Assembly (NCBI GenBank): GCA_948473335.1
Contig: CAOKXF010000007.1
Coordinates: 36,338 to 100,337 of the forward strand
DNA: 64,000 bases
Direction: 5' to 3'
Source of the DNA: an uncultured Clostridium sp.
GTDB lineage: Bacteria > Bacillota > Clostridia > TANB77 > CAG-508
Shown: positions 8,530-37,096 of the stretch, piece after piece
Layout: every line of letters starts with the position of its first letter
Position numbering within the stretch: the stretch's first letter is position 1
Made by a program: the position numbers and the translations under genes
The notes under the pieces: model-generated
Database searches by the model: none
What the model was told of the DNA's origin: nothing
Seen by the model: the letters and a program-made list of their open reading frames with translations, nothing else

Positions 8530-9099
8530 ATGTTCAATGTAGGCGATAAAATTGTATATCCAATGTATGGAGCAGGGATAATAGATTCGATAGAAGAAAA
8601 AAATATATTAGGTGAAAAACAATCTTACTATATACTAAAGATGCCAGGAGAAGTAAAAGTAATGATACCAACACAAAAGGCAGAAGAGGTAGGAGTAAGA
8701 AATATAATAGATGAAGAATCAGCTCAAAAAGTATTTACAGTATTAGAACAAAATGAAACAGATATGGAGAAAAACTGGAATAAAAGATATAGAGACAATA
8801 TGGAAAAAATGAAAAGTGGAGATATATATGAAGTAGCTGATGTAGTAAGAAACTTAAGTTTCAAACAAAAAGAAAAAGGACTATCAACAGGTGAAAAGAA
8901 GATGCTAAATAATGCAAAGCAAATATTAGTAAGCGAATTAGTCCTAACAGGACATGCAAGTCAAAATGAAGTAGAAGAATTAGTGGAAAACAAAATAAAT
9001 ACATCATTTAACTTATTCAAGACAGAAGATGTAATAAAACCAAGTATAGTAAAAAAATTTATACCATTTGATGAAACAGGAACATCAGAAAATTTATAA
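8530..9099 (+). CDS. CarD/CdnL-family RNA-polymerase-binding transcription regulator
   Basis: ATG at 8530 follows gaaaggagtgacttac. N-terminus FNVGDKIVYPMYGAGIIDSIEEKNILGEKQSYYILKMP matches the CarD_CdnL_TRCF Tudor-like domain. Confidence 0.8.
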   Translation: MFNVGDKIVYPMYGAGIIDSIEEKNILGEKQSYYILKMPGEVKVMIPTQKAEEVGVRNIIDEESAQKVFTVLEQNETDMEKNWNKRYRDNMEKMKSGDIYEVADVVRNLSFKQKEKGLSTGEKKMLNNAKQILVSELVLTGHASQNEVEELVENKINTSFNLFKTEDVIKPSIVKKFIPFDETGTSENL

Positions 9100-9327
9100 A
9101 AAAATTATAATAACTATATTAGAAGTAATAGCAAAAATATTTCTAATATAGTTTTTTATAGTCTGGGAAAGAGGGTTTCTATTTTAAGACACCTCTATGA
9201 TTATGTTTTTTATATATTTTGATTCTCAGAAGATTATTATACAAAATAAAAAAGATAAAAATATAGATTGACAAAGAAACTAATGTTTGATAACATAAGC
9301 AAGAAAGAAAAGAAAGGAAAAATAAAG

Positions 9328-10431
9328 ATGAAAATAATACATTGTGCAGACATACATTTAGACTCACCAATGGAAAGTAAACTAACAAAAGAAAAATCAA
9401 AAAAGAGAAAAATAGAATTAATAGAAAATTTTAAAGAAATGGTAGAATATGCTAAAAAAGAAAATGTAAAAATAATAATAATTGCAGGAGACTTATTTGA
9501 CGATACAAAAAAAACAATGTTAAAAACAACTAAAAAATATATAATAAATATAATAAAAGAAAATTCAGAAATAGACTTTATATATCTAAGAGGAAATCAT
9601 GATATAAATAATTTCTTAGAAGGTGAAGAAAAACCACAAAATATAAAAACATTTGAAGAAGAATGGAAACAATATAGGTATGGAGATATAGTAATATCAG
9701 GAGCTGAACTAAATAAAAACACAGAAAATATATATGATAAATTAATACTAAAGTATGAAGATTATAATATAGTAACATTACATGGACAAATTGATAAAAG
9801 TGTAAATCCAAGAGATAAAGCAGAAACAATATATTTAAGTAAATTAAGAAATAGGAACATTGATTACTTAGCTTTAGGTCATATACATAAAAGAGAAGAA
9901 GGAAAATTAGATAATAGAGGAGAATATAGTTATAGTGGATGTCTAGAGGGAAGAAGTTTCGACGAATGTGGAGAAAAAGGATTTATAGTCTTAGAAATAG
10001 AAAAAAATAAATTAATAAAAAAAGAATTTATAAAACATTCAAAAAGAACAATATACAATATAGAAATAGATATAACGCAAATAGAAACACAAAATCAATT
10101 TGAAGAAGAAATATTAAAAAAAATATGTAATATAGAACAAAAAGATTTAGTAAGAGTAACACTGACAGGAGCATATGAAGTAAAAAAAATAGGAGAAGAA
10201 GTAGAAGACTATTTAGATATAGAAAAAATAGAAAATAAATATAAAGATGAATATTTTTACTTTGAAGTAAAAAACAATGTAAAGATCATAATAAATTACA
10301 AGGAATTTAAAAATGATATATCGTTGAAAGGAGAATTTATAAGAACAGTAGAGCAAGAAGAACTTTCAGAAGATGAAAAAAGTGAAATATGTTTAACAGG
10401 AATAAGAGCAATATTGGGAGGTGAAATATAG
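9328..10431 (+). CDS. metallophosphoesterase, SbcD/YhaO-like DNA repair exonuclease
   Basis: MKIIHCADIHLDSP, GDLFD, LRGNHD and LGHIH motifs. The ATG at 9328 is preferred over the upstream start in the ORF track. Confidence 0.8.
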   Translation: MKIIHCADIHLDSPMESKLTKEKSKKRKIELIENFKEMVEYAKKENVKIIIIAGDLFDDTKKTMLKTTKKYIINIIKENSEIDFIYLRGNHDINNFLEGEEKPQNIKTFEEEWKQYRYGDIVISGAELNKNTENIYDKLILKYEDYNIVTLHGQIDKSVNPRDKAETIYLSKLRNRNIDYLALGHIHKREEGKLDNRGEYSYSGCLEGRSFDECGEKGFIVLEIEKNKLIKKEFIKHSKRTIYNIEIDITQIETQNQFEEEILKKICNIEQKDLVRVTLTGAYEVKKIGEEVEDYLDIEKIENKYKDEYFYFEVKNNVKIIINYKEFKNDISLKGEFIRTVEQEELSEDEKSEICLTGIRAILGGEI

Positions 10432-10432
10432 A

Positions 10433-12646
10433 ATGAAATTATTAAAATGCTATGTAGAAAACTTTGGCAAAATAAGTAAAAAAGAAATTAAATTTCATGA
10501 TAACCTAACAATATTTAAAGAAGAAAATGGATGGGGAAAAACAACATTATCAGTATTTATAAAGTCTATGCTATATGGATTTGATAAAACTACAAAAGAA
10601 AAATTAGAAAGACAAAAATATACGCCATGGAATAATGGAAAGTATGGAGGAAATTTAGATTTAGAAATAAAAGGGATACCATATAGGATAGAAAGGTTTT
10701 TTGGAGAAACTCCAAAAGGAGATAAATTTTCACTCACCAATTTAGAAACGAATAAAGAAGAAAACATATATACAGAAAAAATAGGAGAGGAAATATTCAA
10801 ATTGGATAAAGAATCTTTTGAAAAAAGTATATATATACCACAACAAAGAATAGAAGTAGAAATAAGTAATGATTTAACTACGAAATTAACTAACTTAGAT
10901 ACTATACAAGACGATATGAATAAATATGAGGAAGCACAAAATAAATTAAAAAAGAAAAATGATGAATTAAAAAAGAAAATAAAAAATATAGAAATTGAAA
11001 AAAAAGAAATAGAAGAAAAATTCAATAAATGTAATGAAGCAGAAAAAAACTTAAGAATATATGAACGAGAATATGAAAATTTAAAAAAAGAGCAAGAAGA
11101 AAAGACAATAGAAATAAATAAAATAGAAGAAAAAATAAAAATAGAAAATGAAAAAAATTTAAAAAAAGAAATTATAAAGCAGTATAACACAATTAAAGAA
11201 ATTGAAGAAAAGAATAAAAGGGAAGTAGAAAAAATACAAGAATTTTTTAAAAATGGAATTCCAACAAAAGAAGGAATGCAAGAGATAGAAAAACAAATAA
11301 TTTCAGTAGAAAAATCAAGACAAGAAATGCAAGAAAATAGAATATATCAATTTCTCACAGAAGAAGAAATACAAGAAAAACAAAATATATATAATGATTA
11401 TAAAGAAAAAAATAATATAATAAAAGAAATAGAAACAGAAAAAAAACATCAGGAAAATGAATTAGAAAATTTAAAACAAAATCAAAATTATAAAATGATA
11501 TTTATAGTTATATCAATATTAATATTATTATTTGGAATAATTAGTATATTTTTCATAAAAGAAAAAATAATAAGTTCAATAATAATATTAGTTGGAATAA
11601 TAGTATGGATTATCCAAAAAATAATATTTTCTAAAAATAAAAAAGAAAATAAAATAATGAGCCAAATAGAAAAATACGAATTACAAATAATAAAAAATAA
11701 AGAAGAAAAAGAGCAAAAAAGAAATATCCTGACTGAGTACATATGTAAATATGAAAAAAAATATATTAATGAAGACATATATGAAATCTTATTAAGAATA
11801 AAATTAAATTACGAAGCATATAAAAAATCAAAATTAAATATTGAAAATAATAAACCACAAATAGAAAAGTTTTTAGAAAAATATTTTACAATAGTAATAA
11901 ATGATTATAGTAAATATTTAGATCAAATAAAAATAAAAATAGAAAATGACAAAAATATAAAAGAAGAATATGAACAGTCAAAATATAATACACAAAAATT
12001 TATAGAAGAGCACAATATGGAAGAATTAAAAAATACAGAACCAATAGAAGAACCAATAGAAAAAATAAAAGATAATTTACAAGCAATAAAAGAAGAAACT
12101 AATATAATAATGCAAAATTTAGTATCAACAGAAAAAAAGATAAATGAATTTTCAACAATTGTTGATGAAAAAGTGGAAATAGAGACAGAATTAGAAAATT
12201 ATGAAGAACAAAAAATACAAATAGAAAAAAGAAAAAATATAATAGAAAAAACGATAGTAATTTTAGAAAAGTCAAAAGAAAAATTATCAACAAAATATTT
12301 GCAAGGAATGAATTTAAAATTAAATAATTATATAAAATTATTAGCAGAAAATAGTAATATAGCTGATAAAACAATGATAAATATAGACCTAAATACAAAT
12401 ATAGAAATTGATGGAGAAAAAAAGAATTTAGAAGCATTTAGTATAGGATATAAAGATTTAATTGGTATATGTACAAGATTGGCATTAATTGATTCAATTT
12501 TTGAAGAAGAAAAACCTTTTTTAGTACTTGATGACCCATTTGTCAATTTAGATGAAGAGAAAATAAAAAATTCCATTTCATTAATTAAAGAAATTTCTAA
12601 CAAATATCAAATTATATATTTTTCATGCCATGAATCTAGAATTTAG
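10433..12646 (+). CDS. SbcC/YhaN-like AAA ATPase with long coiled coil and two central TM helices
   Basis: Start abuts the upstream stop (TAG 10429-10431, ATG 10433). N-terminal Walker A reads EENGWGKTT. It has an extensive E/K coiled coil and a C-terminal Walker B-like FLVLDDPFVNLD. Confidence 0.75.
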   Translation: MKLLKCYVENFGKISKKEIKFHDNLTIFKEENGWGKTTLSVFIKSMLYGFDKTTKEKLERQKYTPWNNGKYGGNLDLEIKGIPYRIERFFGETPKGDKFSLTNLETNKEENIYTEKIGEEIFKLDKESFEKSIYIPQQRIEVEISNDLTTKLTNLDTIQDDMNKYEEAQNKLKKKNDELKKKIKNIEIEKKEIEEKFNKCNEAEKNLRIYEREYENLKKEQEEKTIEINKIEEKIKIENEKNLKKEIIKQYNTIKEIEEKNKREVEKIQEFFKNGIPTKEGMQEIEKQIISVEKSRQEMQENRIYQFLTEEEIQEKQNIYNDYKEKNNIIKEIETEKKHQENELENLKQNQNYKMIFIVISILILLFGIISIFFIKEKIISSIIILVGIIVWIIQKIIFSKNKKENKIMSQIEKYELQIIKNKEEKEQKRNILTEYICKYEKKYINEDIYEILLRIKLNYEAYKKSKLNIENNKPQIEKFLEKYFTIVINDYSKYLDQIKIKIENDKNIKEEYEQSKYNTQKFIEEHNMEELKNTEPIEEPIEKIKDNLQAIKEETNIIMQNLVSTEKKINEFSTIVDEKVEIETELENYEEQKIQIEKRKNIIEKTIVILEKSKEKLSTKYLQGMNLKLNNYIKLLAENSNIADKTMINIDLNTNIEIDGEKKNLEAFSIGYKDLIGICTRLALIDSIFEEEKPFLVLDDPFVNLDEEKIKNSISLIKEISNKYQIIYFSCHESRI

Positions 12647-12850
12647 AAAAAATAGTTGACAGAATGTATATAAATTTATTCTAATAATAGAATATTCAAG
12701 CAATATAAAATTTAGCTTATTTTTTATCTAGTTAAAAGAAAGAAGAAAGTAAAAATCACATTTGTGAGATTTATTTTCTCCTTTTTTTATTATCAATAAA
12801 AACCTAAAAACATAGTAGTCCGTAAATGTAGGACAAATTTTGTGTCACAA

Positions 12851-13909
12851 TCAACGTCCCCACTGACCCACAGGAATTCTTAATATTTCACCTGCAAAAA
12901 TTAAATTAGGATTAACAATTCCATTTAAGTCAACAATACTCTGAAGTGAAACGCCAAATAATTTACTAATCATATTTAAAGTATTTCCACATTTTATAAC
13001 ATATAGAGTGTGACTAGTATCATTAAGACTAGAATCATCTAAATTAGGAACATAAATTTTTTGGCATGGATAAATTAAATTTGGATTAGGAATATTATTT
13101 ATTTTTGCTAAATATAAATATGAAGTATTATAAATTTCGGCAATTGCACTTAAAGTGTCACCTCTTTGTACTATTATATAATCTTCGTTAGTAGATGGTT
13201 TTGGAAGATTATCAACATTTATTGATGATGAATCAGATAAAAATATTTCATTAGTAAAATAATCCCTATCTACAAATCCATTTATACCATGTATTTCACC
13301 TTTGTTCGTGTATTGAAATCCTATCCATGATGACCAATTCCCATTGGCAGGTTCAGAAACATAGTAATCTGCTACCCATATAGGATATTTTGCCGCTAAT
13401 TCTGGGCCGAATATATTTCTTGCGTTAGATGCATCACTATAGATTACTACTTCTTTGTTTGTTAATGATGTTACAGTCTCTAAAAATGCTACAGAGATAT
13501 TATTTATTTCCTCAACATTTAAATTACCAAATACTTCAAAATCCATAGCTAATCTGCAGTCAGCAGCATAATTGTTAATTACGGAAACAAAGAAACGAGC
13601 TTGCTCAATAGCTTCTTCTTCAGTAGAAGCTGTTAAAAAATGATAAAATCCAATATTTAATCCATTTGCTTTTGCATTTTCATAGTGTTCTTTAAAATAT
13701 GGATCAACATATTTTGAACCTTGACTTGATTTAATATAAACAACATCTATTCCTGCTTCTTTTACTTCAGCAAAATTTATGTTTCCTTGCCATTCACTAA
13801 CGTCTATACCATTATGTAATTCAGGTGATGCTGGTTCAAATGCTAAAACGCAACTTCCAGTAAAGAAAACTATAATAGCAAATAATAGTATTAATAATTT
13901 TTTATTCAT
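12851..13909 (-). CDS. secreted GH25 lysozyme (muramidase) with two C-terminal LysM domains
   Basis: Signal peptide MNKKLLILLFAIIVFFTGSCVLA. GH25 core GIDVSEWQGNINFAEVKEAGIDVVYIKSSQG. Two LysM repeats (YIIVQRGDTLSAIAEIY..., YVIKCGNTLNMISKLF...). Confidence 0.85.
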   Translation of the reverse strand: MNKKLLILLFAIIVFFTGSCVLAFEPASPELHNGIDVSEWQGNINFAEVKEAGIDVVYIKSSQGSKYVDPYFKEHYENAKANGLNIGFYHFLTASTEEEAIEQARFFVSVINNYAADCRLAMDFEVFGNLNVEEINNISVAFLETVTSLTNKEVVIYSDASNARNIFGPELAAKYPIWVADYYVSEPANGNWSSWIGFQYTNKGEIHGINGFVDRDYFTNEIFLSDSSSINVDNLPKPSTNEDYIIVQRGDTLSAIAEIYNTSYLYLAKINNIPNPNLIYPCQKIYVPNLDDSSLNDTSHTLYVIKCGNTLNMISKLFGVSLQSIVDLNGIVNPNLIFAGEILRIPVGQWGR

Positions 13910-20840: not shown

Positions 20841-20914
20841 GCAGGTGTAGTTCAATGGTAGAACCCTAGCCTTCCAAGCTAGCTACGTGGGTTCGATTCC
20901 CACTACCTGCTCCA
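20841..20914 (+). tRNA. tRNA-Gly (anticodon TCC), CCA encoded
   Basis: Acceptor GCAGGTG/CACCTGC, anticodon arm CTAGC-CTTCCAA-GCTAG, T-arm GTGGG TTCGATT CCCAC. Confidence 0.9.
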
Positions 20915-20940
20915 GCACTACATACATAACACAATCCTCA

Positions 20941-21045
20941 TAAGATAACTGTATAATACCCAAACTCCAAGCAGTTATCTTATCTACTTAACGAGATAAC
21001 TGCTTAAATACCCAAAACTCCAGGCAGTTATCTTGCCTACTTACT
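20941..21045 (+). repeat. two tandem ~51-nt hairpin units in the spacer between the tRNA-Gly copies
   Basis: AGATAACTG(20943)...CAGTTATCT(20980) and AGATAACTGC(20994)...GCAGTTATCT(21033). Both loops carry ATACCCAAA(A)CTCCA(A/G)G and both units end in CTACTTA. Confidence 0.8.
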
Positions 21046-21065
21046 AAACTTTCTGACAAATATAT

Positions 21066-21139
21066 GCAGGTGTAGTTCAATGGTAGAACCCTAGCCTTCC
21101 AAGCTAGCTACGTGGGTTCGATTCCCACTACCTGCTCCA
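21066..21139 (+). tRNA. tRNA-Gly (anticodon TCC), second copy
   Basis: 74/74 nt identical to 20841-20914. Confidence 0.9.
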
Positions 21140-21175
21140 TTAAGTAAAATCGTCGCACCAGACGAAAACATTGAT

Positions 21176-21203
21176 AAATCAACTGTAAAAGGTTGATTTT
21201 TTT
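21176..21203 (+). terminator. rho-independent terminator of the tRNA-Gly operon
   Basis: AAATCAAC-TGTAAAAG-GTTGATTT followed by TTTT. Confidence 0.7.
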
Positions 21204-21239
21204 AATGCCTTTATCTTGAACAAGGAAGGATGGTGTGGT

Positions 21240-21524
21240 ATGATTAGTATCGTTAAGAAGAAAAACAAGATTAAAAGAGAATTGCTCTCTAAAATTGAAT
21301 GGGCTTGCAGTTTGAATGCTATAAAACTTGAACATGAAATGATATTAGAAGGTTGTTTAAGAATTATAGAACATACAAACTTAGCGTATGTAGAACCACA
21401 TAGAGTAATTATTAAAGATAAGTTATTTTTATTCTTTAATGAATGTGATTACTTTTATGTGGGAGATTTAAGGTATAAATACCCTTTATCTCATTTAAAA
21501 GACTACATAGAAAGGCTACTTTAA
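21240..21524 (+). CDS. hypothetical protein, first gene of island module 1 (paralogue of 26630..26914)
   Basis: An ATG at 21240 or the TTG at 21216 could be the start. Shares the segment TNLAYVEPHRVII with TNLQFIEPTEYLI in the 94-aa ORF upstream of the second recombinase remnant. Confidence 0.5.
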   Translation: MISIVKKKNKIKRELLSKIEWACSLNAIKLEHEMILEGCLRIIEHTNLAYVEPHRVIIKDKLFLFFNECDYFYVGDLRYKYPLSHLKDYIERLL

Positions 21525-21558
21525 TTTTAGAGTTTTTTTGTGCTTAAAATTTATTTAA

Positions 21559-23390
<1,832 letters not shown>

Positions 23391-23619
23391 AAAAGTTAGA
23401 GGAAAAATTCAAGCTAAATATAATTTTTGTACTCCTATATATTTCCTAACAAGCACTGAATTTTTCCTCCCTAGTCAAAATCCGAAATTTGGGACTAAGT
23501 CCCAAGCCCTTTATAAAATAATTTATAACTATTTTGTAAATTTAATGAAAAAATGGAAAAATTATGATATACTTAAATTCGTCAGACGGTGTCTGACGAA
23601 TTTGAAAGGATGATAAATT

Positions 23620-24666
23620 ATGGACAATATGTTAATAAATGGAATTGATGAAAATTTTTACAATAATATAAGAAATACTATATTAAAAGCAAGAATAAAC
23701 ATATATAAAAATATAAATTTTGAAATGGTAAAATCTGCTTGGGATGTTGGCAGACAAATTATAGAAGAAGAACAAAAGGGAAAACACAGAGCAGACTATG
23801 GAAAACAAATTTTGAAGCAATTATCTGAACGATTGACAAAAGAATTTGGAAAAGGTTATTCGCAAACTAATCTTAAAAATATGAAAATTTTTTATACAAT
23901 GTTTCAAAATTGTCAGACACTGTCTGACGAATTAAGTTGGAGTCATTATATTGAATTATCAAAAATAAAAGATGAAACTATGAGAAAATTTTATTATAAT
24001 GAGTGTATCAATTCAAGATGGTCTGTAAGAGAATTAGATAGACAAAAAGCATCTTTACTATTTGAACGATTAACACTTAGTAAAGAAAAAGATGAAGTTT
24101 TAGCAATTGCAAATAAAGGACACGAAATAACAAAACCAGATGATTTAGTAAAAGATCCAACTGTATTAGAATTTTTAGGATTAAAAGAAAATAAAAGATA
24201 TTTGGAAAAAGATTTAGAGAATGCGCTAATAGAACATTTACAGGAATTTCTACTAGAGCTAGGAAAAGGATTTTCTTTTGTAGCAAGACAACAAAGAATA
24301 AATTTAGGTGGAGAAAACTTTTATATAGATTTGGTATTTTATAATAGATTAGCAAAATGTTTTGTATTAATAGATTTGAAAACTGGAAGATTAACTCATC
24401 AAGATGTTGGACAAATGCAGATGTATGTAAATTATTATAAAAGAACTCAAATGGTAGAAGGAGAAAATGAGCCTATTGGAATATTGTTGTGTTCTGAGAA
24501 AAATGATGTTGTAGTAGAATTTACATTACCAGAAGGCAATAAAAATATATTTACATCAAAATATCAATTATACTTACCAACAGTAGAGGAATTGAAACAA
24601 ACAATTGAAGAAGAAAAGAAACAAATTGAAACTAATACAATTATAGACAAAAACGATAATATATGA
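23620..24666 (+). CDS. DUF1016/YhcG-family PDDEXK nuclease-like protein
   Basis: RADYGKQILKQLSERLTKEFGKGYSQTNLKNMKIFY, LSWSHYIEL, and a C-terminal IDLVFYNRLAKCFVLIDLKTG (D..(D/E)xK nuclease core). Confidence 0.75.
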   Translation: MDNMLINGIDENFYNNIRNTILKARINIYKNINFEMVKSAWDVGRQIIEEEQKGKHRADYGKQILKQLSERLTKEFGKGYSQTNLKNMKIFYTMFQNCQTLSDELSWSHYIELSKIKDETMRKFYYNECINSRWSVRELDRQKASLLFERLTLSKEKDEVLAIANKGHEITKPDDLVKDPTVLEFLGLKENKRYLEKDLENALIEHLQEFLLELGKGFSFVARQQRINLGGENFYIDLVFYNRLAKCFVLIDLKTGRLTHQDVGQMQMYVNYYKRTQMVEGENEPIGILLCSEKNDVVVEFTLPEGNKNIFTSKYQLYLPTVEELKQTIEEEKKQIETNTIIDKNDNI

Positions 24667-24836
24667 TAAAATATTTATGTAAATAAAAAAATGACGGATT
24701 GGAGGAATATAATGCTTAAATATCCAAGAACCATGCATGGTGGAGAATTATGGGCAAAAATAGAAGTACTTGAGAATGTTTCTACTCCTTTATTTATAAA
24801 ACAAAAAAATAATTAAATAAAGGAGATATATGTATT

Positions 24837-25265
24837 ATGAATTATGAAGATAAAAAAATTGTAGGAATTATAGCTAGTAATGTTGAGCCATCTGTTGCAC
24901 TTAATGTAATAGGACATCTTGCGATATCAATAGGTAAATATTCAGATAAGGAAATTATGGGAAAACCAATTATCACAGATAAGTCAGGTGTAAATCATTT
25001 AGGAATTAGTCAGTTCCCTTTTATTATAACAAAAGTAAAGGCTGGTAAACTTAAAAATGCAATAGATATAGCCAAAAATAATCCGAATTTATTAGTTGTA
25101 GATTATCCAAAAGATATGTTAGATACTAGAACTGATGATGAATTGGTAACTTCAATTAGTTCAAAAGAAAATGATAAATTGGAATATTTAGGTGCTATTA
25201 TATATGGAGATACTAAAGATGTAAATGAAATTACTGGTAAATTCCAATTATGGAGAATAGATTAG
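24837..25265 (+). CDS. DUF2000-family protein (PTH2-like fold)
   Basis: 142 aa. The pattern KIVGIIASNVEPSVALNVIGHLAISIG...GKPIITDKSG...FPFIITK...LEYLGAIIYG matches my recollection of DUF2000. Confidence 0.5.
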   Translation: MNYEDKKIVGIIASNVEPSVALNVIGHLAISIGKYSDKEIMGKPIITDKSGVNHLGISQFPFIITKVKAGKLKNAIDIAKNNPNLLVVDYPKDMLDTRTDDELVTSISSKENDKLEYLGAIIYGDTKDVNEITGKFQLWRID

Positions 25266-25292
25266 TATAATAACTTAAAAAATACTAATTAA

Positions 25293-25329
25293 AGGCAACT
25301 AGTTAAAAATAAATAGTTGCCTGTTTTTT
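25293..25329 (+). terminator. rho-independent terminator
   Basis: AGGCAACTA-(12 nt)-TAGTTGCCT followed by GTTTTTT. Confidence 0.7.
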
Positions 25330-25411
25330 GTTATATGGAATATGTATTTTATCAATGACTGAATTATTTTTAAATGAAAAATGCTAGTGAAAACTATCTA
25401 TATGCAGTTCT

Positions 25412-26251
25412 CTAATTATTTTTTTCATAAATCTGAATTAGATAATTTAAAAAAGCAGAACAAGACACTAGCATATATTTTGCTTCTTCAAATGTAGTAT
25501 TTTCATCAACACCATTATTGTGTCTAATACCGCTTTTATCAGAAGTATAACCATACAAAGAAATAAAAGCATTTTTCATTGCACTATGTATTTCAAATCC
25601 ATTTTTTTCTAGCCTTTTTAATGCCTCACCTAAAGTAGCATTATTTGTACCTAATATAATGTTGCATATAGCTTCAATTGCAGAAATAGATTCTTTAACT
25701 GAATTTGAATAATCAGGGTTATCTCTATTATAAAGCAAGTTTAATGCCTTATTTATGCTTTCGCTACAAGCAGAATATTTAGTATCTAATGCTTCTTCTA
25801 TTTCTTTTATTTCTTCATCATTAATTATATCAGTTATTTGCATATTAACAAATCTATATCCTACACATTCTATTTCAAATAATTCATTAAATATTCCTGT
25901 TAAATCTTGATAGAAAGATTTATTATACCATATAACAATTTCTTCAATAAAAGATAAAATATCATAATATTGCCAATCCTTCTTGATTCCATCAATTATG
26001 TTTTGCCTTTTATCACTATCATAATAAGGAATTTCATTTTTAGTAACGCAAAAGACTGTTTTGTATATATAATTATAAAATTCATCAAGTTTATATCCCT
26101 TATCGCAATTATCAATAATCACATCAATTATATTAATTATCTTATTCCTTGTTCGTTCATCTAAATTATCTTTTTGAATTATTGTATTGATGGGTTCTTT
26201 TTTAGTTCTATCAGAAAATCCACCTCTAACTCTTGGTTTTAATGATAACAT
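25412..26251 (-). CDS. AbiJ-like abortive-infection protein (AbiJ-NTD4-type N-domain + HEPN-like C-domain)
   Basis: ATG at 26251 (RBS aaggaaag) is preferred over the GTG at 26260. N-terminus GFSDRTKKEPINTIIQKDNLDERTRNKIINII. C-terminus LYGYTSDKSGIRHNNG...AKYMLVSCSAFLNYLI resembles the AbiJ HEPN region. Assignment is from memory of family patterns. Confidence 0.45.
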   Translation of the reverse strand: MLSLKPRVRGGFSDRTKKEPINTIIQKDNLDERTRNKIINIIDVIIDNCDKGYKLDEFYNYIYKTVFCVTKNEIPYYDSDKRQNIIDGIKKDWQYYDILSFIEEIVIWYNKSFYQDLTGIFNELFEIECVGYRFVNMQITDIINDEEIKEIEEALDTKYSACSESINKALNLLYNRDNPDYSNSVKESISAIEAICNIILGTNNATLGEALKRLEKNGFEIHSAMKNAFISLYGYTSDKSGIRHNNGVDENTTFEEAKYMLVSCSAFLNYLIQIYEKNN

Positions 26252-26629
26252 ACTTCTCACTTTCCTTACTTATTTTAATAAAACTAATTTTACTAAAAAT
26301 AATTATACTATAAAACTATCTAATTATAAATATTCTACCAAGAATTTATCTAAAAAATATCATAATTTATAGAATTTTAAGTAAGATAAATTAATAATAA
26401 AATGCTTTATATTTTTTTATTTATATGTTATACTAATTTCAACAGTTGATTAGCCAATTATTTTTTGAGCAAAATGTGGGAGGAACACTATGAGAAATAG
26501 GCATATTTTTCGCAAATAACCTCCTAAAACGCTCCAATTTATAGCAACTTACGAACTATCAAGTTTGTAGGTTGTTTTTTTTCATATCTATAATTAAAAT
26601 GTTCTCTTTCCAGAAAGGAGGGCATTTTT

Positions 26630-27087: not shown

Positions 27088-28073
27088 ATGAGATGTGGAG
27101 TTTATGTAAGAGTATCAACAGATGACCAATTATAGATATGGAAACATGGAACGCCACTAGAAAAGTTTTAGAGAAAAATAAACACTCAAATTACGGAGAG
27201 TATATTCATTTATTTAATGGTATTGTGAGATGTTCTACTTGTGGAAAAATATTATCTTCTACAAACTCTTTTAAATATAGTGGAACACTAAAAGAAAAAG
27301 TATATTATCATTTAACTTGCAAAAATTCTAATTGTAAATCAAAAGGGATACATTATAGTTCAGATAAAATTGAGGAAAAATTGTCGAGAGTTTTAAATGA
27401 ATTAACAAGGTATATGTATGATATAGATAATGAAATTATAGTATGTAATTCAACCAAAACAAAGGATATTAAAGATATAGAAAAAGCTATTGACAAGCTA
27501 AAAATGCAAGAGAAAAAATTAGTAGATTTATATTTAGATTCTACCTTAAATGTTGAAACTATTAACAATAAAAATGATAGTATCAAGAAAGAAATAGAAA
27601 ACTTAAATAAAAAAAGAAAGCAAATTGATTCTAATAATGACTTTAAAGAATATACAATAGAACTATTAAAAAAATTAGATTATTCTACTGAAAATGATGA
27701 ATTTATTTTCACAAACAAATTGAGTTTTTCATTTATTTTTGAGAGTTTAAATAGAAAATCAAAGAAAGAATTGATTAAAAGGTTAATAGATTGCATCGAA
27801 ATTAAAAGAGATAAAAACTACAATATTGAAATAACAAATATAAAATTCACAGAAGAATTTATATCAAAAAGTAGTACAGACTACATCAATTATTTATATG
27901 CAATACTGAAAAATAATAATGTTGGATTTCATTATAAAGAAGCAATTAACAAACAAGAATTAGAAAGATTACAAGAAGATTATTTTGTATTTTCTAATAC
28001 AAAAATTGCAAAAGCCTTGATATTAAAGAACAAATGTTTTAGAATATATAGAGTAAGAAAAGGATGTGAAGCT
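27088..28073 (+). pseudogene. large serine recombinase remnant with the catalytic and recombinase domains deleted
   Basis: MRCGVYVRVSTDDQL then a stop (27088-27135). From 27138 the sequence resumes at ETWNATRKVLEKNKHSNYGEYIHLFNGIVRCSTCGKIL. This aligns to [38 protein letters not shown] of the first recombinase, so about 240 codons are missing. The zinc-ribbon/coiled-coil tail then runs without a stop into the next gene. Confidence 0.7.
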
Positions 28074-28985
28074 ATGGAAGAAAATAAATTAACAATTCAA
28101 AATGAATTAACTAATGAAGATATAAAAAATTTAATATATACTATAAGAGGAAAACAAGTTATGTTAGATAGTGATGTAGCTATGTTGTATCATTATGAAA
28201 CTAAAAATGTAAATAAAGCGGTAAAAAGAAATATTGATAGATTTCCAGAAGATTTCTGTTTTCAGCTTACTAAGGATGAAATGGATAAAATGTGGTTCCA
28301 AAATGGAACCACATCAAAGGGAGAAAATAATAAATATAGAAGTGAAAAATATTTGCCTTATGCATTTACAGAGCAAGGAATAGCAATGCTATCAGGAGTA
28401 TTAAAAAACGATATTGCAATAGAAGTAAGTATAAATATTATGCGAGCATTTATAGAAATGAGAAAATTTATAAATACTAATAAAAATTTATTTGAAAAAG
28501 TAATTAACATTGAAAATAAAATGGACAAAAAATTCATTGAACAAGACAAGAAATTCGATATAATATTTGATCAATTGCAACTCGAAGAAAACATTAAACA
28601 AAGAATATTTTTTGATGGTCAAATATATCATGCATATAGCATAATAATAGATATTATTAAAAAAGCAAATAAAAAAATCTTAATTATAGACAATTATATT
28701 GATGATAGTGTTTTAAAAATGTTAGCTAAAAAGAAGAACAATGTAGAAGTTGTTATTTTAACATCTGACAAAAGTAATATTGAAAATTTAGATATAAAAA
28801 AATTCAATAAAGAATATCCTATTCTTAAAGTTGCTAAAACAAACAAATTTCATGATAGATTTATTGTAATAGATAATAAGGAAATGTATCATTTAGGTGC
28901 TTCAATAAAGGATTTGGACAAAAAGTGTTTTGCAATTAACAAAATAGAGGATGTGGAAATTATAAAAAAGATTATTAATTTGTAA
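28074..28985 (+). CDS. ORF6N-domain (KilA-N-related DNA-binding) protein
   Basis: The internal ATG at 28074 follows aaaaggatg. ORF6N signature: IYTIRGKQVMLDSDVAMLYHYETKNVNKAVKRNIDRFPEDFCFQLTKDE...YLPYAFTEQGIAMLSGVLKNDIAIEVSINIMRAF. The C-terminal HDRFIVID...YHLGASIKDL region is typical of this family. Confidence 0.7.
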   Translation: MEENKLTIQNELTNEDIKNLIYTIRGKQVMLDSDVAMLYHYETKNVNKAVKRNIDRFPEDFCFQLTKDEMDKMWFQNGTTSKGENNKYRSEKYLPYAFTEQGIAMLSGVLKNDIAIEVSINIMRAFIEMRKFINTNKNLFEKVINIENKMDKKFIEQDKKFDIIFDQLQLEENIKQRIFFDGQIYHAYSIIIDIIKKANKKILIIDNYIDDSVLKMLAKKKNNVEVVILTSDKSNIENLDIKKFNKEYPILKVAKTNKFHDRFIVIDNKEMYHLGASIKDLDKKCFAINKIEDVEIIKKIINL

Positions 28986-29007: not shown

Positions 29008-30111
29008 TTAAAAGTATTGTCTTAAATCTATAATATCACAATTTCTTTCACCAGTACCAATCATTGTAACAGGTGTATTAGTTGTTTCTTCTATCTTTTT
29101 AATAAAGTCTTTAACTTTGATAGGTAATTCATCATAACTGTTACACCTATATGCTTTCCAATCTATGTACTGAGCAAAATTTAAAACAATTTTAGTTGAC
29201 TGATTTATCATCACATTATATTTTAGCCTATCCCAATTCATTTCAAAAACACGCCTTATTTTCTTTGTTACAGTTGTATACTCCTCTAAAGCAATATTAC
29301 ATCCACATCTATCTTTTACTTCATTCCAAGTAATTTCAGCACTACCTGCATAATTACCACTATAAATGTCTTCTCCAATGTTAGTTTTATTACTTATTCT
29401 AATAGGATATGGTCTTATAATCATATAAATATCTTTTACTTTAAAAGGACTTAATCCAGCATTTGCAATTAGTTGACTGCTACTGCACATTCTACTTGTA
29501 ACATTGGGATAATCAAGTCCATAGTTAATATCTAAATCTTGTCCTTGTGCTCCCTCTATTAAAATGCTATCATTACATTCGTTTAGCAATTTTGCAGTAT
29601 CTGTTATTTCAACACAATTTTTAAAATCATTTGTTAAATTTTTAAAATAATCTTTTGCTAAAATAACACTAGGATTTCTTATGATTTTTTCAGCTTGAGC
29701 TGAACCACAACCTTTAAATGTTGATTCACTCCTAATTATTCTTTTTTCTTCGTCACGATGTTTTTCTAAAATAATCATTGCTCTTGGATGAATATATATT
29801 TTTCTAGCTCCAATCAATTCTTTGTACTTTTTTATTTCCTCAAATAATATTTCTGGAGTTATAATACAACCTGCATTTAAAACTAATTTACAATTTGGAT
29901 TTAACATTGCAATAGGTAAATGACTAGCTACTATTTTTTCTCCATTATCTTCTACATAAGTATGTCCTGCATTACTAGACCAATTATTGGTAGATAAAGA
30001 AAAGTTGTCATTTTTAGATAAGTAACCACAAATTTTACCTTTTCCACAACTTCCTGCTTGACCATCTATTACTATAGTAACATTTTTATTGTTCAAAAAA
30101 ATCATCTCCAT
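29008..30111 (-). CDS. divergent adenylosuccinate-synthetase-like protein (PurA/PurZ superfamily)
   Basis: 367 aa. P-loop DGQAGSCGKGK, NAGHT, IEGAQGQDLDINYGLDYPNVTS, TTVTKKIRR and IGTGE are colinear with PurA signatures. The Asp of GDEGKGK is replaced. The gene is translationally coupled to the upstream Nudix gene. Confidence 0.7.
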   Translation of the reverse strand: MEMIFLNNKNVTIVIDGQAGSCGKGKICGYLSKNDNFSLSTNNWSSNAGHTYVEDNGEKIVASHLPIAMLNPNCKLVLNAGCIITPEILFEEIKKYKELIGARKIYIHPRAMIILEKHRDEEKRIIRSESTFKGCGSAQAEKIIRNPSVILAKDYFKNLTNDFKNCVEITDTAKLLNECNDSILIEGAQGQDLDINYGLDYPNVTSRMCSSSQLIANAGLSPFKVKDIYMIIRPYPIRISNKTNIGEDIYSGNYAGSAEITWNEVKDRCGCNIALEEYTTVTKKIRRVFEMNWDRLKYNVMINQSTKIVLNFAQYIDWKAYRCNSYDELPIKVKDFIKKIEETTNTPVTMIGTGERNCDIIDLRQYF

Positions 30112-30545
30112 TATTCATAAAATTTTTTAATATTTTCTAAATCAAAAATTTCTTTAACAAATTGATTTAAATTGGATAATCCTGCAATTTCTTGATTATA
30201 AGTGTCCATAACGAAATTAATATCTTTCCACTCATAATGTCCTTCATAATTGTCTTTAACTGCTACTTCTTGAACAAAGTCATATATAACATTTAAATTT
30301 GTATTACTATTCATTATATTTGATTCGGGATATACATATGTTACTAGAAGTTTAGGATTTTCTAAAGCAATATTTGTTTCTTCAATACATTCTCTTTTAG
30401 CAGCTTCAAGAGGAGTTTCATTTTCTTCAATTTTTCCACCAATTCCATTCCAACAATCTTTATAAGGTTTTTTGTTTCTTTTTACTAATAACAATTTATC
30501 CTTATTTTTATTAAACAACATTATTACCACATAATTTTTATTCAT
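30111..30545 (-). CDS. Nudix hydrolase
   Basis: Nudix box GKIEENETPLEAAKRECIEETNI (Gx5Ex7REUxEExGU with the last G changed to N). Its stop overlaps the downstream start (TAATG at 30111). Confidence 0.8.
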   Translation of the reverse strand: MNKNYVVIMLFNKNKDKLLLVKRNKKPYKDCWNGIGGKIEENETPLEAAKRECIEETNIALENPKLLVTYVYPESNIMNSNTNLNVIYDFVQEVAVKDNYEGHYEWKDINFVMDTYNQEIAGLSNLNQFVKEIFDLENIKKFYE

Positions 30546-30623
30546 ATCAAGACCTCCAAAAAGAACTAAAACTTATTTTTATCATAATTTTACTACATTT
30601 ATATGTTTTTTTCTATACTTCTA

Positions 30624-30701: not shown

Positions 30702-30756
30702 CAATTAATAAGTCATTGTATTAGAAAGAGGTCTAATATAATGGCTTATTAATTTG
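30702..30756. repeat. 55-nt near-perfect palindrome (about 24-bp arms, loop AAGAGG)
   Basis: CAATTAATAAGTCATTGTATTAGA-AAGAGG-TCTAATATAATGGCTTATTAATTTG, with 22 of 24 arm positions complementary. Confidence 0.85.
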
Positions 30757-30847: not shown

Positions 30848-31321
30848 ATGAATATGTCCAAGTTTCAAGTTTATATTAATTCGAAGCATTTTGGATTATT
30901 AGCAGGTCTAGTACACCAATATGACCATGAACGGTTTGTTTGCTTAATGGGAAATGTGGAAAAAGTTGGTGAATTTCAAGCGATAGTTATCAAAGAAATG
31001 CAAGTTTTGGACGACGATGACTACGAAGGGTTGTATACGGCACTCTGCAGACCCAAAAAATCTGTTATTCAGCAAATGCTACAGAGAGTGGAACAGAAAA
31101 GATATTCAGTTTATATCGAATATCATACGCATCCACTAGATTTTCCACATTTTTCTGAAACAGATAAAGCAGATGAAAAGGGAATGTGGGAATATTTCCA
31201 TGAGATATTTCCCAATAAGTATTATGGAAATATGGTATTGGATATCAATGGATGTGGTCAAGCTGTTATTAGAGATTGGCATGATGGAAAATTAAAAAAG
31301 TTTGACACTATTCCATATTGA
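30848..31321 (+). CDS. JAB/MPN+ (JAMM) metalloprotease-domain protein
   Basis: Exact JAMM motif HTHPLDFPHFSETD (HxHx7Sx2D) with an upstream Glu (DHERF). RBS is agaaaggggaac ATG. Visibly higher GC than the surrounding sequence. Confidence 0.7.
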   Translation: MNMSKFQVYINSKHFGLLAGLVHQYDHERFVCLMGNVEKVGEFQAIVIKEMQVLDDDDYEGLYTALCRPKKSVIQQMLQRVEQKRYSVYIEYHTHPLDFPHFSETDKADEKGMWEYFHEIFPNKYYGNMVLDINGCGQAVIRDWHDGKLKKFDTIPY

Positions 31322-36257: not shown

Positions 36258-36436
36258 ATTATAAGGAAAGTCATCTTCTTCGTTTTACTATGTATAAGTT
36301 ATATGTAAGTTACTAATGCCAAATAGCTAACTTATCATAATGGGTGACTTTCCTAATAATAAAAAAAATATAAAATAGTAGTTGATATTTTTTTAAAAAT
36401 AGAGTAAAATTCAAAAAGAAACAAAAGGAGGAAATA

Positions 36437-37096
36437 ATGATAACTATAAATGATATAAAAAGTAATCCAGAAGTGCAAGCATTAGTAAAAGCAGCACAAA
36501 ATCAATTAGATGCAATTGGATATACTGAACATTCAGAAAGACATATAACTATAGTATCAAATAGATGTGCAGAAATATTAGAAAAGTTAGGATATGATGA
36601 TAGAATTGTAGAATTAGGAAAAATAGCAGGATATTTGCATGATATAGGAAATGCTGTAAACAGAATAGATCATGCACATAGTGGAGCGATTCTAGCAAAT
36701 CAAATTCTTAAAGAAATAAGGATGCCAGCAGAAGACAGAATGGAGATATTGACAGCAATAGGAAATCATGATGAAGACACAGGAACAGCAGTTAGTGATA
36801 TATCGGCAGCATTAATATTAGCAGATAAATCAGATGTCCATAGAAGTAGAGTACGAAATCAAAATATGTCTACATTTGATATACATGATAGAGTAAACTA
36901 TGCAGTTACAGATGCGGATCTAGAAGTTTATGGAGAAGAAAGAAAGATAAAAGTCAAATTGACAATAGATACAAATATATGTCCTGTTTTAGATTACTTT
37001 CAGATATTTATGGAAAGAACAATGATGAGTAAATATGCAGCAAAGTTTTTAAAAGTTTGGTTTGAGCTAATAATAAATGATACAAAATTATTATAA
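36437..37096 (+). CDS. HD-domain phosphohydrolase
   Basis: HSERH...GYLHDIGNAVNRIDHAHSGA...GNHDE metal-binding pattern. Confidence 0.75.
   Translation: MITINDIKSNPEVQALVKAAQNQLDAIGYTEHSERHITIVSNRCAEILEKLGYDDRIVELGKIAGYLHDIGNAVNRIDHAHSGAILANQILKEIRMPAEDRMEILTAIGNHDEDTGTAVSDISAALILADKSDVHRSRVRNQNMSTFDIHDRVNYAVTDADLEVYGEERKIKVKLTIDTNICPVLDYFQIFMERTMMSKYAAKFLKVWFELIINDTKLL

Follow-up and report, generated by a model that had tools for sequence, protein, structure and literature searches.

A Nudix hydrolase gene coupled to a PurZ-like synthetase gene in uncultured gut Firmicutes: a possible cellular counterpart of the phage 2-aminoadenine pathway

We analysed a 64-kb stretch of an uncultured Clostridium sp. 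(positions 36,338 to 100,337 of the forward strand of contig CAOKXF010000007.1, assembly GCA_948473335.1; G+C ~26%), hereafter the window, in which two minus-strand genes form a tight pair. The first encodes a Nudix hydrolase of 144 amino acids (aa) at 30111..30545 (open reading frame (ORF) translation and Pfam NUDIX), and the second a 367-aa member of the adenylosuccinate synthetase superfamily at 29008..30111 (Pfam PF00709) that we class below as PurZ-type, or Ser-type. The two share the pentanucleotide TAATG (30109..30113, minus strand), the last A (30111) of the Nudix-gene TAA being the first base of the synthetase ATG, and in fused homologues a continuous reading frame runs through this point. 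Inspection of the sequence found a GGAGG ribosome-binding site (Shine-Dalgarno; 30553..30557, minus strand) 7 nt 5' of the Nudix ATG, and none for the synthetase ATG itself; with such a site before the first gene only and a stop/start overlap before the second, translational coupling fits, and the overlap suggests it. An earlier reading of the letters, made without database searches (the sequence-only reading), had described two minus-strand genes sharing TAATG at 30111, and both ORFs are there, as are all the motifs that it had quoted from their translations (GKIEENETPLEAAKRECIEETNI, DGQAGSCGKGK, NAGHT, IEGAQGQDLDINYGLDYPNVTS, TTVTKKIRR, IGTGE and STFKGCGSAQAEK). It was also right that the synthetase is shorter than E. 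coli PurA (367 vs. 432 aa, from the E. coli purA translation) and that the pair does not stand with purine biosynthesis genes, no purine-pathway gene being present among the window ORFs scanned around it.

The 367-aa protein matches Pfam Adenylsucc_synt (PF00709) strongly (E = 1.1e-40, 140 bits, cutoff 27), and this superfamily-level model is the only one that it passes; every curated equivalog model stays below its cutoff. Its best NCBIfam score is for archaeal PurA (NF003295, 225.5 vs. cutoff 368), with the bacterial-type PurA models far lower (TIGR00184, 155 vs. 395.55; NF002223, 122.7 vs. 402), and it is matched at 9e-63 by PHROG 1211, the phage '2-aminooxy adenylosuccinate synthetase' family. 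Among solved structures the best matches by sequence were Pyrococcus PurA (4e-43, phmmer), phiVC8 PurZ (5e-38) and S-2L PurZ (1e-35), with bacterial PurA (1e-23 and weaker) and PurZ0 (3e-21, PDB 7VF6) well behind.

The active site separates these relatives more sharply. In a residue alignment with PurZ of phiVC8, S-2L and SH-Ab 15497, PurZ0 of Wayne and Hiyaa, and PurA of P. horikoshii and E. coli, the protein has the P-loop DGQAGSCGKGK (PurZ, D.Q[FY]GSTGKG; PurA, GGQWGDEGKG), the IMP/dGMP loop STFKGCGSAQ (PurZ, STxxGxxAA; PurA, TTGxGxGPA), the aspartate/ribose block TTVTKKIRRVF (PurZ, TTVTKKVRRVF; PurA, GTVTGRRRRVG) and the donor-base motif LNFAQYID (PurZ, LNF..Y; PurA, [VL]T[KM]LD), so that the PurA hallmarks Asp13, the TTGxGIGPAY IMP loop, GRRRR and TKLD/STGP are all replaced. 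S21 takes the position of the PurA catalytic Asp13, and Ser is invariant there across 80 aligned relatives; this Asp is Ser in 100% of 147 phage PurZ-group sequences, while Asp13 is kept in 99% of the PurA clade (PMC12884076). Residues S21, T279, K284, F312, Y315, W262, Y254 and P236 equal phiVC8 PurZ S14, T262, K267, F295, Y298, W252, Y244 and P233, and the phiVC8 P144 position is conserved as well. In phiVC8 the residues equivalent to F312 and Y315, F295 and Y298, have a stabilising role for the adenine of ATP (bioRxiv 10.1101/2025.10.22.683976). K284, aligned with phiVC8 K267, corresponds to E. coli R303, and the stretch SNKTNIGEDIY, inserted in a loop after IRI, resembles the S-2L insertion A242-W250; the deoxynucleotide preference of PurZ has been explained by Lys or Leu at the R303 position plus a loop insertion (PMC8342488). 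The sequence-only reading had noticed that Ser-Cys replaces the Asp of the GDEGKGK loop and that the IMP block is degenerate; in the alignment, and given the published roles of these positions, both turn out to be PurZ hallmarks (PMC12884076; bioRxiv 10.1101/2025.10.22.683976). By its residues, then, the protein appears to be PurZ-like and other than a housekeeping PurA, and the earlier suggestion of a PurZ-like enzyme is supported by the residues and by placement in the Ser-type group.

That placement comes from neighbour-joining (NJ) distance trees with bootstrap. A search of 1.84 billion cluster representatives gave 401 relatives at E<1e-30; among the 150 best, Ser fills the catalytic position in nearly every one. 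All Ser-type sequences stood apart from Pyrococcus PurA (bootstrap 99-100%), the family holding the window protein was recovered at 100%, the Ser-type group excluding PurZ0 at 95%, and the branch excluding both PurZ0 and classical PurZ, to which the window family belongs, at 91%. In these trees the protein falls outside both the classical PurZ and the PurZ0 clade. The 91% branch also includes Bacillus phage vB_BpsS-140 (41.6% identity) and a clade of 39-69 kb IMG/VR contigs (L092-L100; 50-54% identity) with the same GSCGKG P-loop and STFKGCG block; the sister placement of the bacterial family and this viral clade is weak (52%), and in one NJ tree most of the branching order inside the Ser-type group had supports of 0-48%. 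These viral proteins, with the PurA-like protein of vB_BpsS-140, are the nearest relatives beyond the family. On the IMG/VR contigs the gene lies within a replication and nucleotide-metabolism module (PD-(D/E)XK nuclease, Holliday-junction resolvase, helicase, thymidylate-synthase-like protein, dNMP kinase and primase-helicase), the vB_BpsS-140 gene also sits in a phage module for replication and nucleotide metabolism, and neither has a Nudix gene adjacent to the synthetase gene.

The family itself is cellular. In the phage, plasmid and IMG/VR collections searched there was no relative at 68% identity or above, and none exceeded 54% in IMG/VR, 42% in GenBank phages or 32% in PLSDB plasmids. 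When each GTDB species was scanned through a single genome, 63 loci came out, every one from a metagenome-assembled genome (MAG) of an uncultured gut member of the Clostridia, Bacilli or 'Tenericutes' (Clostridium sp. CAG:440 and CAG:575 among them); the family is present in about 50 species-level MAGs, and one 2.7-kb MAG contig encodes a protein 100% identical to the window synthetase. In several loci the gene stands directly among housekeeping genes, flanked by FtsY and a methyltransferase, preceded by RuvX and DUF1292, or followed by PGI and pyruvate kinase. Uncultured low-GC gut Firmicutes carry the module as a compact accessory unit, cellular rather than viral.

A separate short PurA-like family was met in PLSDB (H41-H55; 28-32% identity) on replicons of Rhizobium, Agrobacterium, Ralstonia and Burkholderia. 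Its gene adjoins purB in Rhizobium leguminosarum, and the A. rubi protein is 537 aa long with an additional N-terminal P-loop (GPISVGKS) domain; L027 (5461-7074) and the Rhizobium plasmids H51, H53 and H54 are among the examples.

Both genes of the pair are under purifying selection (pairwise dN/dS against orthologues: synthetase 0.14-0.21, Nudix 0.11-0.28), and therefore neither is a relic; the idea that the pair might be the remains of a Z-genome-type phage pathway finds no support in this result or in the spread of the family over so many species. The synthetase gene is dispensable, as follows from a natural in-frame deletion allele of 384 bp (29461..29844, minus strand, by contig comparison), which removes residues 90-217 with the catalytic blocks STFKGCGSAQ and EGAQGQD, leaves the Nudix gene intact, and occurs with identical breakpoints in four contigs of the same species from different samples (L103, L105, L106 and L109). 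Frameshifted or split synthetase copies occur in other species (L072, L083 and L085), and one MAG, RGIG4938 from roe-deer rumen, has two Nudix::PurZ-like fusion copies on different contigs (L057 and L059).

These data bear on an interpretation that database labels invite, since relatives are called 'adenylosuccinate synthetase' in the source databases: the protein could be the organism's working PurA, a divergent short archaeal-type enzyme converting IMP to AMP in purine salvage, beside which the Nudix would be an adjacent housecleaning enzyme. Pfam and NCBIfam do place it in the PurA superfamily with its best NCBIfam score for archaeal PurA, and its gene lies on the chromosome, is spread widely through one bacterial lineage and is kept by purifying selection. 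An AF2 model (pLDDT 93.7) has the fold of Pyrococcus PurA, with template-modelling (TM) scores of 0.81-0.83 to that enzyme and to PurZ structures alike (Foldseek vs. PDB), and P. horikoshii PurA (PDB 2D7U/5K7X) is of the same size class and colinear over its full length. However, the P-loop Asp, TTG.G.GPA, GTVTGRRRRVG and V-T-M-L-D of the archaeal enzyme all differ in the window family: Asp13 has become Ser in every member, and the GTP-specificity motif T-K/M-L-D has been swapped for an ATP-type N-F-x-x-Y. The PurA equivalog scores lie far under cutoff (225 vs. 368; 155 vs. 395), the genomic position changes in almost every species, the protein is found fused to Nudix or GNAT domains (which we saw in no canonical PurA, though no search aimed at it was made), and the deletion allele circulating in the window's species, the split copies and the duplicate copy in one MAG argue against a housekeeping purA. 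We consider this reading quite unlikely.

The Nudix partner is a well-formed member of its own family. The 144-aa protein matches Pfam NUDIX (PF00293) at E = 3.1e-15 (56.8 bits, cutoff 21.1), and its Nudix box, GKIEENETPLEAAKRECIEETNI, is intact (G-x5-E-x7-R-E-U-x-E-E-x-G-U) apart from N replacing the last G. Its orthologues form a tight family (66-100% identity) of stand-alone proteins of 143-147 aa, and the Nudix profile hidden Markov model also matches the N-terminal part of ~510-aa fusion proteins. Such fusions make up 31 of the best 120 homologue clusters of the synthetase (70-88% identity; ~510-aa proteins with PF00293 + PF00709), a further 2 being GNAT fusions; the fused homologues measure 510-530 aa and have the Nudix part N-terminal, as in the gene order of the window pair.

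Neighbourhoods were counted at 49 close, species-representative gut Firmicutes MAG loci out of the 63. An orthologous Nudix gene abuts or overlaps the synthetase gene upstream at 21 of these 49, the Nudix is fused at 14, and a different Nudix lies directly downstream at 3; at 2 a GNAT is fused instead. Conserved adjacency of the two genes, which the sequence-only reading had named as a check on its idea, is thus the rule. Clustering of the four genes to either side (+/-4) found no conserved neighbour other than the Nudix; large serine recombinases (9 loci), TnpV, ORF6N, GNATs and extra Nudix genes recur sporadically. An identical Nudix protein (P0389) precedes the synthetase gene in five different left-hand contexts. 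The fusions provide 'Rosetta stone' evidence for coupling, and a link that is kept across species, often within one polypeptide, is on this comparative evidence probably functional.

Several variants of the arrangement were noted. In four contigs (L118-L121) no PurZ-like gene is present, and the gene for the partner Nudix (80% identity to that of the window) is joined in tandem by one for a different Nudix and one for a 239-aa membrane-type protein. Where a GNAT acetyltransferase domain replaces the Nudix at the N-terminus (L019, L040 and L042; proteins P0026 and P0081), GNAT genes and a Nudix lie nearby. In another group (L113-L117, also L049, L051, L053 and L054) three conserved genes come after the pair; they encode a 224-aa protein, a 396-aa protein without a Pfam match and a Ser/Thr protein kinase of 307 aa, and strains differ in the left flank. 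Contigs like those of Clostridium sp. CAG:440 (L005-L012, at about 8550-13180) have a species-specific cluster around the fusion gene, with a 146-aa Nudix, a 296-aa AP_endonuc_2/sugar-epimerase-like protein, the 511-aa Nudix::PurZ-like protein, an optional GNAT, a 298-aa IU-type nucleoside hydrolase and a 203-aa HDIG phosphohydrolase, which may amount to a larger nucleotide-processing pathway.

We propose, from the signature residues and the conserved pairing, that with these two genes a cell, rather than a phage, carries out its own version of the two opening steps of the phage pathway to 2-aminoadenine (the Z pathway), and would give this reading a probability of roughly 55%. In the first step the Nudix would hydrolyse a guanine nucleoside triphosphate (dGTP is the most likely one) to the monophosphate, releasing pyrophosphate; in Z-phages this step is done by the unrelated MazZ or DUF550 enzymes. 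In the second, to judge by its signature residues, the PurZ-type synthetase would phosphorylate O6 of (d)GMP with ATP, after which aspartate would displace the phosphate to yield N6-succino-2-amino-(deoxy)adenylate. Host adenylosuccinate lyase (PurB) and nucleotide kinases could then complete the route to dZTP, a completion established for phage PurZ only. Neither a dATPase nor a Z-selective polymerase was seen beside any member, and full replacement of A by Z is therefore not expected; plausible outcomes are that Z replaces A in part, that nucleotide pools are manipulated or that an antiviral nucleotide is made. Candidate roles are an antiviral change of the dGTP/dZTP pool, partial Z-DNA of the cell or of a mobile element, or some other function in the purine pool. 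The wider proposal, that this gut Firmicutes lineage makes 2-aminoadenine nucleotides itself through a domesticated PurZ fused or coupled to a Nudix (d)GTP pyrophosphatase, with bacterial or mobile-element DNA partly Z-substituted or with dZTP/dSMP in an antiviral or regulatory role, we hold to be doubtful.

The known system most like the pair is PurZ-MazZ(-DatZ) of S-2L, phiVC8 and SH-Ab 15497, with which the window synthetase shares the Ser P-loop, TTVTKKxRRVF, LNFxxY and an inserted loop following the IRV/IRI strand. In S-2L the genes purZ, mazZ and datZ overlap, and the window synthetase is likewise overlap-coupled to an NTP pyrophosphohydrolase gene, so that the pair would repeat the 'synthetase + NTP pyrophosphohydrolase' architecture with an unrelated hydrolase fold. 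MazZ and DUF550, the (d)GTP pyrophosphohydrolases of Z-phages, have the MazG/HisE all-alpha fold, whereas the partner here is of Nudix fold and lies upstream or is fused, and would therefore be at most a functional analogue of them. The window protein differs from classical PurZ in its low identity (30-35%), its separate branch (91%) and a C-terminal segment retained as in archaeal PurA, and its family resides on bacterial chromosomes without DatZ or DpoZ, whereas the phages use replication modules. With PurZ0 of the actinophages Wayne, Hiyaa and Archimedes (PDB 7VF6) it shares a Ser-type P-loop and a longer, archaeal-PurA-like C-terminal region, at 25-28% identity, but PurZ0, whose P-loop reads GSEAKG, keeps T-M-[LV]-D where the window family has N-F-x-x-Y. 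PurZ0 is accompanied by dNTP-to-dNMP hydrolases (DutZ/DmtZ) (PMC12884076), and the window family is likewise paired with a predicted nucleotide hydrolase, but no Dut-like or NDT-like partner was seen.

A number of observations weigh against the proposed Z-pathway chemistry. The substrate assignment relies on residues defined in distant PurZ proteins (30-35% identity), and the NCBIfam PurZ model (NF038379) scores 207.9, below its cutoff of 300 and slightly under the archaeal PurA model. Some PurZ-associated positions are changed (phiVC8 F12 to Ala, Ala19 in the window protein; T15 to Cys; S273 to Glu), and those of I34 and G256 are likewise not conserved; the F12 position varies (W/F/Y/A/V) among Ser-type proteins, and the equivalents of S14 and T262 are kept. 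The C-terminal third (WKAYRCNSYDELP...IGTGE) is closer to archaeal PurA and PurZ0 than to classical PurZ, and the fold cannot separate PurA from PurZ because the TM scores to both are equal, so that the structure comparison, another check named earlier, established the superfamily fold and not the distinction. The best PDB matches of the Nudix are generic MutT proteins (E ~1e-6), and its sequence points to no particular substrate; a nearby Nudix is lacking at 9 of the 49 loci, while the reverse case, a Nudix without the synthetase, occurs in some genomes. No DatZ-like dATPase or DpoZ-like polymerase was seen adjacent to any family member. Set out as evidence for a PurZ, the Ser, the ATP site, the deoxy-specificity residues and the group-level phylogeny agree, and the NCBIfam cutoff, placement relative to the classical PurZ clade, and phage, DatZ or DpoZ context do not.

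Two candidates for a missing DatZ were rejected. The HD protein beside the CAG:440 fusion is HDIG-type, has no PDB sequence match and does not resemble S-2L DatZ to any meaningful degree; the other candidate, an HD gene of the window (36437-37096), lies 6 kb off, in a conserved housekeeping array, and is unrelated to DatZ. The thought that the Nudix itself replaces DatZ also found no backing, since nothing supports a dATPase role and the only HD protein near a relative is the HDIG-type one.

A different possibility is that the pair sanitises or recycles nucleotides: the Nudix would cleave a non-canonical (d)NTP (dITP/ITP, XTP, 8-oxo-dGTP, or the dZTP of a Z-phage), and the synthetase would re-aminate the resulting 6-oxopurine monophosphate to a usable adenine-type nucleotide. 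The closest relatives of the Nudix are housecleaning enzymes of the MutT/MTH1/NudB type, genes for additional Nudix proteins, GNATs, NT5C, a nucleoside hydrolase and an HD protein are among the recurrent neighbours in relatives, and a dispensable synthetase gene would suit such a function. Yet the Ser and Thr that accommodate the guanine 2-amino group are kept, which points to ordinary (d)GMP, the Nudix is the sole neighbour conserved across species, and the sequence has no sign of damaged-base recognition; we consider sanitising quite unlikely.

Comparison of strains clarified how the pair relates to the mobile DNA beside it. An insertion of 5391 bp (21140..26530; comparison with strain contig L107, and Pfam) adjoins the pair and is strain-variable: its site is the 3' end of the second of two tRNA-Gly(TCC) genes, and it has GCTCCA at both junctions, is absent in L107, and carries a large serine recombinase (21617-23032), a YhcG PDDEXK nuclease, DUF2000 and an AbiJ_NTD4 protein (25412-26260, minus strand). 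It has the look of a small integrative element of the defence type. As exactly this insertion is missing from L107, the pair is adjacent to, and outside of, the recombinase/AbiJ element. In the window's species (identified by identical ribosomal protein S6) the pair is always upstream of rpsF, and the chimera of a recombinase remnant and an ORF6N protein and the JAB gene that flank it stay with it across the comparison. The recombinase remnants, ORF6N, AbiJ-like and JAB genes that the sequence-only reading had listed as neighbours were all identified by Pfam, but its picture of a pair inside a decayed mobile island has to be given up, the recombinase-AbiJ block being a separate tRNA-Gly insertion and the pair being fixed upstream of rpsF.

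An older mobility is another matter. An ORF6N gene adjoins the synthetase gene in four other species, convergently in L029, L030 and L055 and on the same strand in L059, and recombinase fragments flank the synthetase gene in L029. The ORF6N neighbours and recombinase fragments suggest that a serine-recombinase element once carried this branch of the module's descent.

Such associations are among the grounds for supposing that the pair is an anti-phage or anti-mobile-element system, which upon infection would drain dGTP into dead-end or toxic dSMP/dZTP in the manner of dGTPase or dCTP-deaminase defences. The one- or two-gene unit is compact, with neighbours that differ in nearly every species, often large serine recombinases, TnpV or ORF6N; the window has an AbiJ-like gene; an identical Nudix (P0389) with a synthetase gene occurs in several genomic contexts; and the nearest relatives are phage enzymes. 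The Nudix also gives a partial, domain-level match (1.3e-11, residues 1-74) to the PADLOC candidate PDC-S07, itself a Nudix. Like the dGTPase and dCTP-deaminase systems, the pair would consist of small accessory enzymes acting on dNTP pools, but the synthetase is not homologous to theirs and matches no PADLOC-DB 2.0 model. No associated sensor or regulator accompanies the pair, many copies sit among ordinary housekeeping genes, and the AbiJ block is an independent insertion. We judge a defence system unlikely, although it concerns role, and is compatible with the Z-pathway chemistry proposed above.

PurZ, the phage enzyme with which synthesis of Z begins, serves as a marker for Z-genome viruses (PMC13128860, PMC12884076), and natural Z-DNA (2-aminoadenine) has been reported exclusively from phages (PMC13128860). 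Because PurZ signature residues also mark a cellular clade that is both large and abundant, PurZ homology alone is no proof of a Z-phage in gut metagenomes. PurZ-type enzymes themselves are known from phages; what is new here, as judged from sequence, is a cellular, Nudix-coupled branch of the PurZ group. In the searchable literature we found no PurZ-Nudix pairing and no bacterial PurZ, an earlier mention in Zhou 2021, Sleiman 2021 or Tong 2023 being possible, and the earlier remark that no described defence system has this gene pair agrees with that literature and with PADLOC-DB 2.0. The Nudix would be a third, independent way to supply the monophosphate substrate, besides MazG-like and Dut-like enzymes. 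Whether cells make or use 2-aminoadenine becomes directly testable, with the intact and deletion alleles within one species as a natural built-in control; if true, cellular 2-aminoadenine synthesis would be the first case of the Z pathway at work in cells, and the fused Nudix-PurZ-like enzyme could be a compact tool for dZ nucleotide production.

The remaining features of the locus are minor. Convergent with the pair is a chimeric ORF of 615 aa (27138..28985, plus strand, Pfam), whose N-terminal part is a serine-recombinase C-terminal remnant (zinc-ribbon and coiled-coil) in frame with an ORF6N protein; the ORF6N half is a separate gene of ~316-339 aa in other species (L029, L030 and L055), and the C-terminus has an FHDRFIVID...LGASIKDL motif to which no function was assigned. 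On the other side lies a Prok-JAB protein gene (30848-31321, Pfam), which we rejected as a partner of the pair because the adjacency is confined to the window's species, and rpsF-ssb-rpsR is downstream of the pair/JAB neighbourhood (translations and Pfam labels). A prophage origin of the window copy was likewise rejected, as there are no flanking phage genes and no family member in IMG/VR or GenBank phages. A promoter scan of the locus gave nothing beyond shuffled expectation for this AT-rich DNA, and an Rfam scan matched only the two tRNAs. The divergent Nudix/JAB intergenic region has an imperfect inverted repeat with a 20-bp stem (30705-30752), possibly an operator or terminator. The two tRNA-Gly(TCC) genes (within 20841-21139) are identical and 225 bp apart, an arrangement shared with strain L107, and their spacer holds two ~50-nt repeats (20943-20990 and 20994-21043), each with a hairpin GATAACTG...CAGTTATC.

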